Of a stretch of DNA of 64,000 bases, positions 10,003 to 62,866 are shown piece by piece. The first letter of the stretch is position 1. The number at the start of each line of letters is the position of its first letter. The translations under genes were made by a program, and so were the position numbers. Under the pieces are notes generated by a model that was not told the DNA's origin, searched no databases, and was given only the letters and a program-made list of their open reading frames with translations. Origin of the DNA: Octopus vulgaris (lineage: Eukaryota); assembly GCA_951406725.2 (NCBI GenBank), contig OX597830.1, forward strand, positions 11,160,001 through 11,224,000. The letters run 5' to 3'.

Positions 10003-10370
10003 TAGCAAGAAGTAAAGGGGAAAAATAGAATTAATATTTTTGATTTTGTTTGGCTTTATGAATTTAATTTTTTTAAATGCTTTTGTCAATTGCTTGATGC
10101 AAGAAAGAAGAAATTGGAAAAATCCTGACCAAAACAGAGAAATTCTAACAAAAATTACAGAAAGAGAAAGTTGTGTTTATTTCTATCATGCAACACTTAT
10201 TATCGCACTCACGCATATACGTTCATATATATGTGTGTGTGTGTCTTTTAGTTTTTGTTTACTTATACACTTCAACAAATGAGCCAATTGAACAACTCTG
10301 TGTGGTTGTTCAATTTGCTAGAAATAACAGCAAAATCTCTCTCATCTTATGTTCATCCTGTGTCGGTGTT

Positions 10371-10856
10371 GGGGTTACCACTTTAGCAGGATATCTTCAT
10401 TTTCACATCAGGGTCACCACTTTAGATGGTTAGTGTCCACATCACGCCAGGGTCACCACTTTAGATGGTTAGTGTCCACATCACGCCGGGGTCACCACTT
10501 TAGATGGTTAGTGTCCACATCACGTTGGGGTCACCACTTTAGATGGTTAGTGTCCACATCACGCCGGGGTCACCACTTTAGATGGTTAGTGTCCACATAA
10601 TGTCGGGTTTACCACTTTAGATGGTTAGTGTCCACATCATTGCCGGGGTCATCACTTTAGATGGTTAGTGTCCAGATCACGCCGGGGTCACCACTTTAGA
10701 TGGTTAGTGTCCATATCACGTTGGGGTCACCACTTTAGATGGTTAGTGTCCACATCACGCCGGGGTCACCACTTTAGATGGTTAGTGTCCACATCACATC
10801 GGGTTTACCACTTTAGACGGTTAGTGTCCAGATCACGTTGGGGTCACCACTTTAGA
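10371..10856 (-). repeat. 39-bp minisatellite (~12-13 units), each containing a tRNA-Trp primer-binding site
   Basis: Unit GGGTCACCACTTTAGATGGTTAGTGTCCACATCACGCCG; contains ATCACGYYGGGGTCACCA, the 3' 18 nt of eukaryotic tRNA-Trp. Confidence 0.85.
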
Positions 10857-11226
10857 TGTTACAGGTTGTGGTGTCATCTAATGAGACTCCGCTCAGAAGG
10901 TTGTAATGTTGTTTGGTAGTAGACCTGGATGAAGAATATGCAAACAGAAGGCTGGTGACTTTAAATATGTTTATTGTGGTCACAAACTGAATGGAAGTGG
11001 TTGATGTACTTTTGTTCATATATATATATATATACAAGCATCTGCGTGGGTTGTGTGTTAGCTGTTAACTCTGGTGAGAAGCTCATGAACAACGAAGTGT
11101 AGGAACCAGTGTAGTGTGTTGGTGCTGTGTAGATGTTGGCGCGTCAGTGAGAGACATCAGTGGTGGCAACGAAGATGGAGGTCGCTGCAATGTGGTCAGT
11201 GGTTAGAAAGTCTGGAATCAACTGAT

Positions 11227-12629
11227 TTCTTTATTTGGCACCCAAGCCATGACATAGAGGGGACAGCTCAAGGACAGACAGAACACCACAGTGGGGACAA
11301 AAGGCAAAAAAGGAATGAAAATGAAAAAATGTATACTGAAATCGATGATATATTTCTTTACTACCCACAAGGGGCTAAACATAGAGGGGACAAACAAGGA
11401 CAGACAAACGGATTAAGTCGATTACATCGACCCCAGTGCGTAACTGGTACTTAATTTATCGACCCCGAAAGGATGAAAGGCAAAATCGACCTCGGCGGAA
11501 TTTGAACTCGGAACATAACGGCAGACTAAATACGGCTACGCATTTCGCCTGGTGTGCTGACGATTCTGCCAGCTCGATGATAATGAAATGGCTGCATTGA
11601 ACCCCACTTCTCAAGCAGAACCATTTAACTGTTAATTTATACAAGTTATGAAAGTTTTTTCTTTCTTTTTGCATATTTTTTTCCTGAAAGGCATGGCTGG
11701 TGGCAGCAGTCATGCACGAAATGGGGGAAGATGCAAGGATTCTGAAGATAACCTCCACCACCACTCTTAGCGCAATGTCTTGTGGTAGAAGAATCTCTTC
11801 TACAATTCCATGTAGGTCTTTTAACTCAACTTGAATTACCATTTCTATGCCGTAGCCCCCATCAATTAACTTCCTTCGTTCTGGTTATCTTCAGAATCCT
11901 TGCATCTTCCTCCATTCCATGCATGACTGCCACCACCAGCCAAGCCTCTTCGATCTCGGGGAGCACTCTGCCGACTCTCACTTTGGTAACACCTTTGCCA
12001 CAGTACATCGGCAGCAGCACCCACTCTTGTGTCCTTATTGGCTCAGTGGAATGGTTAATAACGTCCTCCTCACTGGAGAACCTAGCCTCCACTGTGCAGT
12101 ATTTTCTTCCACATGTATAGTAGGTGGTTAACCCTCTCACTTCAGCTAGACATTCTTCTATTGCCTCTATTGGAGCAATTTCTATTTTCTTGGTAGCGGT
12201 TGATAACGTCCTGTATACAACCGTCTTCCTTGTTACATTCTTCATCACTTCTTCTGGCGAGGTCAGCTTTAAACTAGACCCTTCCTTTTGTAACAATTTT
12301 TTCCTTTTTCCCATTCCTCTGTCTCTATTTTTATCTCGCGAACTTCAAGGGTGTTGGTCGTAATACCCTGTGTAGTTGCGGATGCATAACTTGCGACACA
12401 TTCCATTTCTCCTCCTTTTCCCACTTCACCCATAATGGGGAAGAAACAATTTTCAAAAACAGGCAAAACACAGCAACAAAAATTCAACAATCAAAACAAT
12501 TCAACGAATCTTGGTTCTCCCACATGGGGAGACCTACAACAAACATATAATAACAGTGTGTAACAATTCAAACTCACGGCAAAGAAACTACTACCAATAC
12601 CCTTCTGGCTTTACAAAGCTCACCGACTC
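11227..12629 (-). mobile_element. Internally deleted Tx1/L1-type non-LTR element (5' region + partial ORF1 + 3' tail)
   Basis: 18-bp TSD AGTCTGGAATCAACTGAT (11209-11226, 12630-12647); ORF 11862-12314 resembles the ORF1 at 53719-54620; tail ends AATAAAGAA. Confidence 0.75.
11351..11573 (-). mobile_element. tRNA-derived SINE family I
   Basis: Reverse complement of the 21939-22170 family; TSD TCGATGATA at 11342-11350 and 11574-11582. Confidence 0.9.
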
Positions 12630-13568
12630 AGTCTGGAATCAACTGATGCTGAGCCTATGAAGAGGTGAACTTTTATAGCTGAAGGGTAGGCTCAAATGCT
12701 TGTTTGGAACAGACTGTCTCATGTGACTTATTTGAAGGCTGCAATTGGTTGGGTTGCATATTGGCACACATGTTTGTTATATAATAGAGAGAGGAAGTTC
12801 ACCAGAGTTCGTTACAGTTGTATTCGAAAGCCAAAGGATGTTTTTTAGCCGAGGTGTAATTTGATAATTTCAGAACATAAGACTTACCATGTTATCTGGT
12901 GTATGGCCGAGTTCAAATGGGTAGAAGACCTAAAGCAAATGTGTGTATGTGTGTGTGTGTGGTTGGGACTGGGGTCAATTTCAATCCAATCGTAGAAAGG
13001 CATTCAAATAATCAGCCACTCTGAAAAGACAGTTTCATGCCATCATCTCTCTCTCTCTTTCACTTCCTCTGCTCAATACACGCATCAGATTTAAGTATCT
13101 TAATTTTCTGATTAAGGTAATTGTTGAGAAGTGGTAATGCAATACATAAGTGCTGGTTTCAAATCTCTTTCAGAAATTACAAGAGATCTACTTAATAACT
13201 TTTTATTTAAGTAACAAAATTTCTTTCAACAATTTCTTTCTTTTAAGCATGACACACGCGGCAGGTACGTATAAAAAACAAATTGGCATATTAATATTAT
13301 CGATGATACAAAACTAGCTAGAAAGAGAGACATATTGTTGAGAACAATAGATTTCGTTGGGGGTACCTGTTATCTCAATTCTAACTTTTCATGACCAAGA
13401 AGAGGTCAAGAGGGTCAAGTGGTAAAGACATAAATCTGCTTAGCAAAGCCATATGTTAAATGTAACTTGCTGTCAACCATTGTTTCTCTGTAAGAAAAGT
13501 GCTGTTGTAACGTTAAGGGAAATTGGTAGATTCTGGTTCAAATTTACTCTATGCCTAAATGAGATCAC

Positions 13569-14400: not shown

Positions 14401-15125
14401 TTTCTTTATTGCCCACAAGGGGCTAAACATAGAGGGGACAAACAAGGACAGACAAACGGATTAAGTCGATCACATCGACCCCAGTGCGTAATTGGTACTT
14501 AATTTATCTTAAGGCGGCGAGCTGGCAGAAACGTTAGCACGCCGGGCGAAATGCTTAGCGGTATTTCGTCTGCGTTACGTTGTGAGTTCGAATTCCGCCG
14601 AGGTCGACTTTGCCTTTCATCCTTTCGGGGTCGATAAATCAAGTACCAGTTACGCACTGGGGTCGATGTAATCGACTTAATACCTATGCCTGTCTTTGTT
14701 TGTCCCCTCTGTGTTTAGCCCCTTGTGGGTAATAAAGAAATAGGTACTTAATTTATCTTAAGGCGGCGAGCTGGCAGAAACGTTAGCACGCCGGGCGAAA
14801 TGCTTAGCGGTATTTCGTCTGCGTTACGTTGTGAGTTCGAATTCCGCCGAGGTCGACTTTGCCTTTCATCCTTTCGGGGTCGATAAATCAAGTACCAGTT
14901 ACGCACTGGGGTCGATATAATCGACTTAATACCTATGCCTGTCTTTGTTTGTCCCCTCTGTGTTTAGCCCCCTTGTGGGTAATAAAGAAATAGGTACTTA
15001 ATTTATCGAACCAGGAAGGATGAAAGGCAAAGTCGACCTCGGCGGAATTTGAACTCAGAACGTAATGGCAGACGAAATACCGCTAAGCATTTCGGCCGGC
15101 GCGCTAACGTTTCTGCCAGCTCACC
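14401..15125. mobile_element. SINE I cluster: minus-strand copy interrupted by two tandem plus-strand copies
   Basis: Plus units 14509-14742 and 14758-14992; GGTACTTAATTTATC occurs three times at the junctions. Confidence 0.9.
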
Positions 15126-17379: not shown

Positions 17380-17932
17380 TGAACATCAATGGAATTTGTA
17401 GTTTTGTGGTACCAGTGCCGGTGGCACATAAGAAAACCATCCGAACATGGCCGTAGCCAGTACCGCATCGACTGGTCTCCGTGCTGGTGGCACGTAACAA
17501 ACACCATCCGATCGTGGCTGTGCCAGCCTCGCCTGGCCTCCGTGCCGGTGGCACGTAAAAAACACCATCCGAGCGTGGCCGTTCGCCAGCCTCGTCTGGC
17601 ACCTGTGTCCGTTGCACATAAAAAAAAACACCATCCGAGCGTGGCCGTTCGCCAGCCTCGTCTGGCACCTGTGTTGGTGGCACATAAAAAAAAAAACACC
17701 ATCTGAGCGTGGCCGTTCGCCAGCCTCGTCTGGCACCTGTGTTGGTGGCACATAAAAAGCACCCACTACACTCACGGAGTGGTTGGCGTTAGGAAGGGCA
17801 TCCAGCTGTAGAAACACTGCCAGATCTGACTGGCCTGGTGCAGCTTTTGGGCTTCCCAGACCCCAGTTGAACCGTCCAACCCATGCTAGCATGGAAAGCG
17901 GACGTTAAACGATGATGATGATGATGATGATG
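17380..17932 (+). mobile_element. RTE 3' UTR-family copy with ~6 internal tandem units
   Basis: Repeated CACCATCCGAGCGTGGCCGTTCGCCAGCCTCG...GGCAC units, conserved terminal block, (GAT)n tail. Confidence 0.85.
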
Positions 17933-53718: not shown

Positions 53719-56190
53719 ATGGCGACTGGAAACCACATGGCCAGTGCACAAGTCATGCGGAATGCTATTGAGGCACTACCGCTACCATTAGCTGCTGAAC
53801 CTGACAGCTTGAATGCTACCAACATCACCACCACCACCACCAAGGACAAAACAAACTTCACGGAAGTGATAAAACAAAAGAGAACCATCGTAAAGTTCTC
53901 TGCACAAGAAATAAACAACACAAAGGTACTTCTCACCAAGGAAGGAGATAATTTACATCTCCACATTCCACAATACATCATGGAAAACACAAAAAAAAAA
54001 ACAATCATATATAAAGTTAACAACATGAAGACAAGATGACCGGAAAGTGCACCACAGCAAAAAATAGAAAAATGTCTTCACCCTGTATGGGCTCACAAGG
54101 AATACATCAATTGGTGGCATAAATTTGGCACAGTCCAAGTACGATTTTCCACATTAGCTATTCATACAGATGATTTGGTGATGATACTGACTTATTTAGG
54201 CCAGAGAGTGATGAAAATCACAATAAAAAATGTGCCACCTGAAGTAGAAACACAATGGCTAAGCTCTGCCATCTGCTTTGAAATGGAAGAGACAAACATT
54301 CTGGAAATCACTGTTCAAGAACAGCAAAACTGTGTGGGGAAAAACAATTCAATTATTTCTTCAAATTGATGAAATATCAACAGAGAAGATACCCACCGCT
54401 ATAGAATTGCCAGAAGGCTACAGACTGTATGTAGTGGTGGAGAGCAGGTGGCCACGCTGCAATCTGTGCAGCAGCGAAACGCATTTGAAAAAGAATTGTC
54501 CAACCACTGCACAACAAGAGCAACAACAACAACCACCACCACAGCCAAAACATTCCAAGAAAAAAGCACTACTACCCACACCACCATCAACACAGAAGAT
54601 GACAGAAGAAGCACTATAAGCAAATCCATCAACAATCAAAAATAATACAACACCTGAGAAAATACCAACACTACCAACAACAGCAAGAAATAAATAAACA
54701 GAAAAACAGAAAAATACAAAAACTGATTCCTCATCCCCTTTACTGCACACACCACACACAAACAGTCAACAACCAGCATCAACGAAAACAACTACACAAC
54801 CACTTATACAAACATACATAGAAACCTACAACATACCCCTACCCACTTCTGATTCCTCAGAAATTTCGGCGGAGGCACAATGAGGCATCAGAGCCACCAT
54901 TCGGTCTCAGGTAGATGAACAGGGGTGCGAATTACTCAAGCCAAGTCAAATGTGTTAGGCCTTTCAACAGCATTTTGCTTGACTGTTTGGGATGAGTGTC
55001 GAGCGAGAATGCAGGGTGGACTTCAGTACCTACCTGCACAGCCTGCCATGACTCAACAAGAGAGGCAAGGTGCTGTGAAGGTGCCACCATGGTGGGAGAA
55101 TGCTCAAGGGACAAATCGCCAGGTGGGTAGGGGTATGTTGTAGGTTTCTATGTATGTTTGTATAAGTGGTTGTGTAGTTGTATGCCAGACCTGTTTGGTG
55201 ATATCTTGCCAGCAGTGTACTGCAACTGGCAGCATCTCCGGTTTTGTGAGCTGAGGAGCCATAACACTGCTGAAGAAAGATCCAAACAAGAGGGACGTAA
55301 TAGATAACTTTAGGCCCATCACTCTGCTCAATGCAGATTTGAAAATTTTGGCCAAAGTGTTAGCCAAGAGGTTGGCACTTGTCATCAAGAAACTGGTCGA
55401 CAAGGCACAAATGTGCGCTGTGCTGGGCCGGATCATCCATGACAACTTCCATCTGATGCACTACATCATAGACAGAGTAGTTAAGGAACCTAGCATAGGC
55501 GGGGCCCTGATCAATTTGGATCAGTCCAAAGCTTTCGATAGGGTAGACCATCGATACTTGGAGGCTGTTCTCATAGCAGCTGGTTTTGGTCCTGTCTTCC
55601 ACAGCTGGACAGCTGCCTTGTACAGAGGCATCCGTTCAGTAAGTCATGTAAATGTACATCTATTGAGACCTTTTGACATTGCATGTTCAGTCCATCAAGG
55701 ATGCCCCTTCTCGTCGCCTGTGGAAGCAGGTGATGCTGAGAGGCATTCCGCAAGAATTGGGATGTGGGACAAGTGTGTCCACATACGTGAACTACGTCAC
55801 TGTCATAGTGTCTAGCCATGAGCACACCAAGCTGGTCAGCGAGACACTGAAAGACTATGAAGCAATAACAGGAAAAAAAAATCAACCCAGAAAAGTCAGT
55901 GGGTTTGCAACTCGGCACCTGGAGAAACAAGTCATTGCTGTCCAACAGCACCTCCATTGTGGGATGCTGGACCAATGGTCTGGTCGAGTTGCTTGGGGTC
56001 TGGTTTGGTCCAGACCCCCAAAATGGAGAAGAACTGGAATGAGATAATGAGTAAGGTGGTCACTCTTGCCTGGAAATGGGCTGAGAGGAAGCTGTCCCTA
56101 AAAGGTTGGGCGGAGATAACGAACACATACATCGCGTCCGTCATCTACTGCTGCCTGGCCATCATGCCTTGTCCTGACCCTACCATCACC
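53719..56190 (+). mobile_element. Decayed Tx1/L1-clade LINE (ORF1 with zinc knuckle; RT fragment)
   Basis: CNLCSSETHLKKNC (CCHC); RPITLLNADLKILAKVLAKRL, LDQSKAFDRVDH, VHQGCP, RKLSLKG; endonuclease apparently missing. Confidence 0.85.
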
Positions 56191-62212: not shown

Positions 62213-62866
62213 TATTCTGAGCCTTGTTATATAGGTCATATTCTGAGCCTTGTTATATAGGTCATATTCTGAGCCTTGTTATATAGGTCATATTCTGAGC
62301 CTTGTTATATAGGTCATATTCTGAGCCTTGTTATATAGGTCATATTCTGAGCCTTGTTATATAGGTCATATTCTGTGCCTTGTTATATAGGTCATATTCT
62401 GAGCCTTGTTATATAGGTCATATTCTGATCCTTGTTATATAGGTCATATTCTGAGCCTTGTTATATAGGTCATATTCTGAGCCTTGTTGTATAGGTCATA
62501 TTCTGATCCTTGTTATATAGGTCATATTCTGAGCCTTGTTGTATAAGTCATATTCTGAGCCTTGTTATATAGGTCATATTCTGATCCTTGTTATATAGGT
62601 CATATTCTGAGCCTTGTTATATAGGTCATATTCTGAGCCTTGTTATATAGGTCATATTCTGATCCTTGTTATATAGGTCATATTCTGAGCCTTGTTATAT
62701 AGGTCATATTCTGATCCTTGTTATATAGGTCATATTCTGAGCCTTGTTATATAGGTCATATTCTGAGCCTTGTTATATAGGCCATATTCTGAGCCTTGTT
62801 ATATAGGTCATATTCTGAGCCTTGTTATATAGGTCATATTCTGAGCCTTGTTAAATAGGTCATATT
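62213..62866. repeat. 26-bp minisatellite, 25 units
   Basis: TATTCTGAGCCTTGTTATATAGGTCA repeated with few variants. Confidence 0.97.

Follow-up and report, generated by a model that had tools for sequence, protein, structure and literature searches.

Introduction

A textbook LTR element has a single primer-binding site, the position of which fixes the U5 end. Voronin and Pathak reportedly observed in 2004 that engineered retroviral vectors with two primer sites can initiate from more than one of them on a single RNA. Such vectors are artificial, whereas the stacks described here from Octopus vulgaris are natural, and the copy of the LTR end that precedes each site would make the product integrable.

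The closest described relatives belong to the CsRn1 clade of Ty3/Gypsy elements, which is marked by a tRNA-Trp primer site, a 4-bp target duplication, TGT...AAA/ATA ends, a CHCC gag and a GPY integrase tail (PMC2582038). CsRn1, PwRn1 and AgCR have all of these in common with the octopus family, but the passages cited describe one primer site, whereas octopus leaders hold 2–8 (13 in the copy studied here) and the element end appears to shift (PMC2582038, PMC3630058). TRIM/Helenus elements, as presented in PMC10886601, make a 4-bp duplication in animals, and the octopus family likewise has short internally deleted copies (L084, L118, L146); its LTRs, however, are 350–1000 bp long, carry tRNA-complementary rather than tRNA-promoter sequence, and enclose pol remnants.

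Further parallels come from primer use and strand transfer. Read-through into the tRNA is documented in HIV-1 proviruses (PMC12657518, PMC1785368), where delayed plus-strand transfer leaves tRNA complement behind the primer site, 7–54 nt long and copied past m1A58, as in the octopus family. According to the relevant section of PMC12657518, a forward strand jump in HIV-1 yields deleted, defective proviruses, whereas in octopus a backward jump into U5 likely produced a duplicated junction that was inherited. HIV-1 MAL likewise has a duplicated piece of the primer site downstream, although this is one partial copy and is not described in the cited passage as a priming site; the pairing proposed there between HIV-1 U5 and the anticodon stem and variable loop involves the same part of the tRNA as the octopus U5 motif (PMC3185550). 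Drosophila Gypsy has a second tRNA site, an extra tRNA-complementary element as here, but the account cited places it near the 3' end and reports that it does not prime (PMC1635307).

Here we analyse a tandem array of tRNA-Trp primer sites in a 64-kb stretch of octopus DNA (the window), together with its sister copies in the genome. The array is most plausibly the leader of a dead, truncated CsRn1-clade element: its units would have arisen by faulty plus-strand transfer, spare sites of this kind would have been used in sister copies, and the 11-fold repeat would be a later expansion at the DNA level.

Results

An array of primer sites behind a split LTR

An earlier note on this DNA had described a 39-bp tRNA-Trp site array of ~12–13 repeats behind an LTR. 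The array is present on the minus strand (TRF, 11.5 copies, 90% matches), as 11 such units plus two others (Table 1). In all, 13 primer-site-like units can be counted, starting at 10850, 10811 and so on to 10381, the last of which ends near 10349; an unrelated abundant repeat begins at ~10345. Units 1–11 are ~91% alike, and the head-to-tail arrangement of units within the 10–60 bp range, with interspersed variants, is that of a minisatellite (VNTR). Unit 12 resembles a unit of sister copy L085 (32/39) more than it does the units beside it (26/39), while unit 13 is weakly assignable and the leader breaks off within it.

Table 1. Positions of the array, the LTR and associated features in the window
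Feature	Positions	Strand	Remark
11 units of 39–40 bp	10421..10850	minus	primer site + short spacer (likely tRNA read-through) + LTR-end copy
First primer-binding site	10832..10849	minus	complementary to host tRNA-Trp at 17/18
Unit 12	10382..10420	minus	different unit type, present in sister leaders too
Unit 13	10349..10381	minus	cut off
3' LTR part	10851..11226	minus	true end 10851
U5 motif	10885..10903	minus	complementary to tRNA-Trp anticodon stem + variable loop (host-gene residues 38–48 and slightly beyond); 11-mer has one mismatch here
1.4-kb insertion splitting LTR	11227..12629	minus	18-bp duplication at 12630–12647 and 11209–11226
5' LTR part	12630..12816	minus	starts TGTA at 12816; ~115 bp shorter than in sister copies
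4-bp flank before LTR	12817..12820	minus	no matching target duplication after any unit here

The genome searched (2.8 Gb, 227 contigs) contains 36 pattern matches to host tRNA-Trp(CCA), and ARAGORN calls tRNA-Trp at 3 of 6 loci tested (three distinct genes). Seventeen tRNA-Trp-type pattern matches, two of them confirmed by ARAGORN, cluster within ~83 kb (G000:C6:58378998-58461519); in the window ARAGORN finds no tRNA. Against the complement of the host 3' 18 nt including CCA, units 1–13 have 1, 3, 1, 1, 1, 7, 4, 1, 1, 1, 2, 3 and 7 mismatches, the 7 of unit 6 reflecting a shift by an insertion. The match to tRNA-Trp described in the note stands, with the genes present and 7 of the 13 units one mismatch away, none of them perfect. 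Its picture of an array that simply decays towards the distal end does not, since units 2, 6 and 7 are the most altered among the 11 and unit 12 is of another type.

Contigs from independent sequencing runs cover the array start (X2, 10768–10892, 0 differences) and its far end (X5, 10316–10438, 4 differences); none spans the array, so that the copy number rests on the assembly. With both ends present in other sequencing runs, an assembly artefact is an unlikely source.

The LTR ends in ...CATCTAAA at 10851, leaving a 1-nt spacer before the primer site. This end was chosen because solo copies carry the target duplication right after it, and it lies 6 bp beyond the TAACA that had been proposed previously. 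The 3' LTR piece is dispersed through the genome (42 matches within 40 scored candidates; the others are 73–84% identical to the window piece), as is the 5' piece (51 matches, likewise within 40 scored candidates). These dispersed copies, with target duplications at the LTR end, confirm that the flank behaves as an LTR elsewhere. The insertion that splits the window LTR contains a SINE copy (11351–11579) and a 160-aa frame; Pfam gave no match for this or the other frames of the insertion. It is of non-LTR type, and its 3' tail resembles the SINE nested in it.

Family internal DNA, Gypsy RT/IN and a second LTR were sought throughout the 64-kb window and not found, which agrees with the absence of gag/pol behind the array noted earlier; no remainder of the element was found elsewhere in the window either. 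The window copy is thus dead, with its LTR split, no internal part, no 3' LTR and decaying sites. An RVT_1 domain fragment at 55255–55812 (E 1.8e-13) is unmatched by the family RT and is likely a LINE piece. Other repeats in the window include a 26-bp array of 25 copies (62213–62866, 96% alike), two related 66-bp arrays (830–1095 and 17407–17763) and a tandem SINE dimer (14490–15007, 98% alike).

The family bears the marks of the CsRn1 clade

On sequence criteria, the family is a CsRn1-clade Ty3/Gypsy, assigned by the diagnostic marks of the clade as listed in PMC2582038. Its primer site is that of tRNA-Trp and its LTRs have TGT...AAA or TGT...ATA ends. Among 47 distinct copies recognised by LTR likeness, 11 have an exact 4-bp duplication directly after the plain end (...CTAAA/CTATA), three more have a 3/4 duplication and in three the end had to be shifted by eye; the window copy is not readable in this respect. 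The CHCC (CX2HX9CX3C) Gag motif occurs in 9 sister copies, where it lies on the sense strand and follows the sites, and is absent from the truncated window copy. The best PDB match of the sister-copy RT is Ty3 RT (E 1.5e-6), while Pfam found no match in the decayed RT frame; sister copies also contain an rve domain (E 2.5e-12) and, in L084, a GPY-bearing integrase tail. All sister copies are decayed, and their LTR pairs are 78–96% alike.

The family falls outside the TRIM definition of a two-LTR element below 1 kb without coding remnants: the window copy has one LTR, the shortest two-LTR sisters measure ~2 kb, and one of these, L084, has the integrase tail. The tRNA-derived Pol III promoter that Helenus/TRIMp3 elements have in the LTR is likewise lacking, the U5 motif being a short stretch that is antisense to the primer tRNA. 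A conserved stretch lies between primer sites and gag (L091:1795-1959, also in L088, L089, L092, L094 and others) and has a short antisense-strand frame, for which Pfam gave no match. In L125 a SINE copy is inserted within the primer site.

Stacked primer sites are a family trait

The junction pattern has 98 matches in the genome, 12 of them in the window, compared with 6 for the reversed control. At least two junctions are present in 28 of the 29 leaders that continue into internal DNA (six with 2, thirteen with 3, five with 4, two with 5, and one each with 7 and 8, the last two being L124 and L144). The note had allowed that a single site in all other copies would reduce the array to a one-off expansion; multiple sites instead prove to be the rule of the family. 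Nor are the stacks special to non-autonomous elements, as had been suggested, since they precede CHCC gag and pol remnants and are also present in short deleted copies.

tRNA read-through and the probable origin of the unit

In three copies the tRNA complement extends beyond the 18-mer, over 32 nt in L099, 28 nt in L098 and 21 nt in L042 (29/32, 27/28 and 19/21 matching), each with a mismatch opposite A58; a fourth long read-through, in L125, has no mismatch there. In L099 the read-through runs into the U5 sequence that follows the tRNA-complementary motif, and then into the LTR end and a second site. This is likely a duplicated junction caught whole, in which read-through rejoined U5, and thus the origin of the units. 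L099 (C14:32534242-32534983) also has two LTR pieces head to head. L098 (C8:107311237) and L042 belong to another Trp-primed family, and in L098 the 28-nt read-through is joined directly to the integrase tail, apparently a deleted element formed by a forward jump.

The spacers of ordinary units resemble tRNA read-through as well. A T-arm complement match of 6/7 or better is found in 26 of 145 units, compared with 2.9 for shuffled segments, and the observed number of read-through traces was equalled or exceeded with 7 of 499 shuffled probes; the copies are related, so the motif counts are not independent. The window array's own spacer matches the tRNA complement only loosely.

An 11-mer in U5 can pair with tRNA residues 38–48, exactly in 29 of 53 LTR ends and with at most one mismatch in 47 of 53, whereas 39 of 20,000 random 75-mers hold any such 11-mer. 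The motif is among the best-kept parts of U5, although the copies share ancestry and this amounts to one observation. We infer a role in primer binding, because of its likeness to the elements proposed in the cited parts of the HIV (PMC3185550) and Gypsy (PMC1635307) reports.

We postulate that reverse transcription of the tRNA-Trp primer runs beyond m1A58 and that the overshooting end re-anneals back in U5, aided by the tRNA-complementary motif, such that the LTR end and the primer site would be copied twice; L099 would be the one direct witness of this step. The earlier idea that the unit originated in a strand-transfer error is likely right, given the L099 junction and the traces of read-through.

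Spare sites probably primed in sister copies

Priming at site k+1 would give a cDNA whose right end is the LTR plus k units. Such a product would still have its integrase end, because the last bases of each unit repeat the LTR end and stop one nucleotide short of the next site. The 5' start is readable in 42 copies that bear sites, and in 8 of these an exact 4-bp target duplication follows a unit (k = 1, 1, 1, 1, 1, 2, 2 and 3), while permutation of the flanks gave a mean of 1.1 and a maximum of 7 in 20,000 trials. All 8 are among the 18 copies that end after units (8/18), and the 24 that run on into internal DNA have none, this division of the 42 having been judged by eye. Left out of the count were five chance matches (L128, L138, L139, L147, L148), two one-site copies of another family (L116, L143), four without usable junction or orientation (L090, L098, L102, L152), one too rearranged to score (L101) and eight short sequences superseded by longer ones of the same loci. 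An earlier automatic pass, whose anchor had fallen on an upstream sequence resembling the U5 motif, had found duplications in 2/18. The automatic count gave no exact duplication for 10 of the terminal copies; of these, two have 3/4, and three, L111 among them, are 3' LTRs for which an incorrect start had been used. Among the copies counted, the L155 duplication sits in a TA repeat and the end motif of L141 is worn, as is that of L111 (7/9).

Units are also carried by four LTRs (L105, L108, L111, L145) that a preceding purine tract or stretch of 3' untranslated DNA identifies as 3' LTRs. In L145, whose 3' LTR is deleted to ~90 bp, and in L111, a case additional to the 8, the sequence flanking the start of the upstream 5' LTR is seen again behind the last unit. 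Terminal units also have close counterparts in the leaders of longer copies (L130 33/34, L154 37/38, L105 38/40, L108 31/34), above every spacer-shuffled control. A scheme in which units are made anew at the right end with each insertion was rejected for most cases on the strength of this match; for the short 22-bp terminal units of L141 and L142, no close match was found among the leader units.

Because exact duplications follow units, 3' LTRs carry units, and these match the leader units of longer copies, downstream sites likely primed reverse transcription in sister copies and thereby shifted the element ends. The evidence for this use is fossil sequence throughout. Priming at site 1 would also happen and be the commoner outcome: in seven two-LTR copies whose leader is stacked the 3' LTR is plain, and of 13 verified solos found regardless of sites, 11 end at the plain LTR end and 2 at a later site. 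On these grounds site 1 is taken as the usual start.

The same plain ends fit a different history, in which spare sites were never used and deletion after insertion, through the 9–25 bp that a unit's copy of the LTR end shares with the genuine end of the 3' LTR, left the LTR, k units and the duplication. This predicts the solo copies equally well. The unit-carrying 3' LTRs (L105, L108, L111, L145), however, would require that a three-LTR tandem formed first, and 2/13 seems high for a 9–25 bp repeat that would have to compete with LTRs of 350–650 bp. We consider deletion a distinctly unlikely account, and favour priming at spare sites.

The 11-fold repeat is probably a local expansion

The 39-bp unit has 16 matches genome-wide, 11 here and one at each of five other loci, making this the only locus with more than one copy. 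Six variants are common to non-adjacent units, and units 2–6 and 7–11 form a five-unit higher-order repeat (differences between pairs at lag 5 of 3, 0, 1, 1 and 3), in which unit 7 retains the two site mutations of unit 2. Since duplication by reverse transcription through the primer should have renewed the unit 7 site, it is more likely that an array which already carried mutations was duplicated at the DNA level. The sites show no sign of preservation: variation affects 9/18 site columns and 2/21 outside, with 18 differences in the site and 4 outside it, partly at CpG.

Far-site priming with near-site transfer, over repeated rounds of reverse transcription and under selection for more priming, could also have built the long array, and this mechanism is able to duplicate blocks of units. 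Other leaders reach 7–8 units (L124, L144), and an array in another organism has ~44 sites. We nevertheless regard it as rather improbable, as this unit is not multiplied at any second locus, the site at the five-unit duplication junction is not a fresh tRNA copy, and the uneven variation described above shows that the sites were not preserved. The boosted priming proposed in the earlier note for the 11-copy array meets the same difficulty, the copy being dead and the unit multiplied at this locus only.

The array could in principle offer tRNA-Trp 3' fragments many sites to bind, as a target or decoy serving host or element, and most units could still pair with the 3' 18 nt (computed at −30 to −36 kcal/mol in 9 of 13 units, −36.3 for a perfect match). 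Yet no unit is perfect, the differences are concentrated in the site, as expected if CpG-rich DNA decays neutrally, and an insertion interrupts the LTR that bears the promoter; we think a decoy role very improbable.

The 11-fold expansion is therefore best read as a likely DNA-level minisatellite expansion in a dead copy. Slippage or unequal exchange would have multiplied the first unit to 11 copies, one step being the duplication of a five-unit block, and the sites are now decaying. The array itself is real but probably a functionless by-product. Minisatellites seeded inside retroelements include MaLR- and Alu-derived examples. In these, likewise, a short stretch of a dead element was tandemly expanded in place, whereas the seed here was a functional primer-site junction that was already repeated.

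Stacked sites beyond this genome

The natural insertions suggest a movable LTR end and working spare sites, otherwise traced only to engineered vectors. No description of natural primer sites that are stacked and used in turn was found in a search of mostly open-access literature. Target duplications after sites 1, 2 and 3 would provide an in vivo measure of site choice, with a later site in 2/13 verified solos. Use of spare sites would also be a route for U5 growth and drift of the LTR boundary, and would explain mis-called LTR ends in annotation, while the stacked junctions show a seed for minisatellites. With confidence evenly balanced, we propose more broadly that a Ty3/Gypsy lineage across several animal hosts uses an extensible primer-site stack. 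Read-through of m1A58 would add modules of site plus integrase end, any of which may prime, and the right end of the LTR would be chosen anew each cycle; the U5 anticodon-stem motif would drive stacking, and genomes would preserve a record in which choices of site and read-through of the tRNA modification could be counted.

Metagenome contigs were scanned for pairs of Trp sites no more than 40 bp apart, which yielded 30 loci; of these, 6 were set aside as GC-rich coding-like repeats and 24, judged by eye, have an LTR end and a repeated site. In L180/L199 the stack leads into a CHCC gag and shows clear read-through. A young family of 11 loci with 8 distinct 3' flanks (L179, L186, L187, L189, L192, L193, L195, L197, L201, L202, L206) has near-perfect 18-nt sites in 27-bp units, and its copies stop at the LTR-end copy after 2–4 units. 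Lastly, L204/L185 carries ~44 Trp primer-site units of 30–31 bp in 1.45 kb behind an LTR end, far longer than the window array; L182 groups with this long array from another organism.
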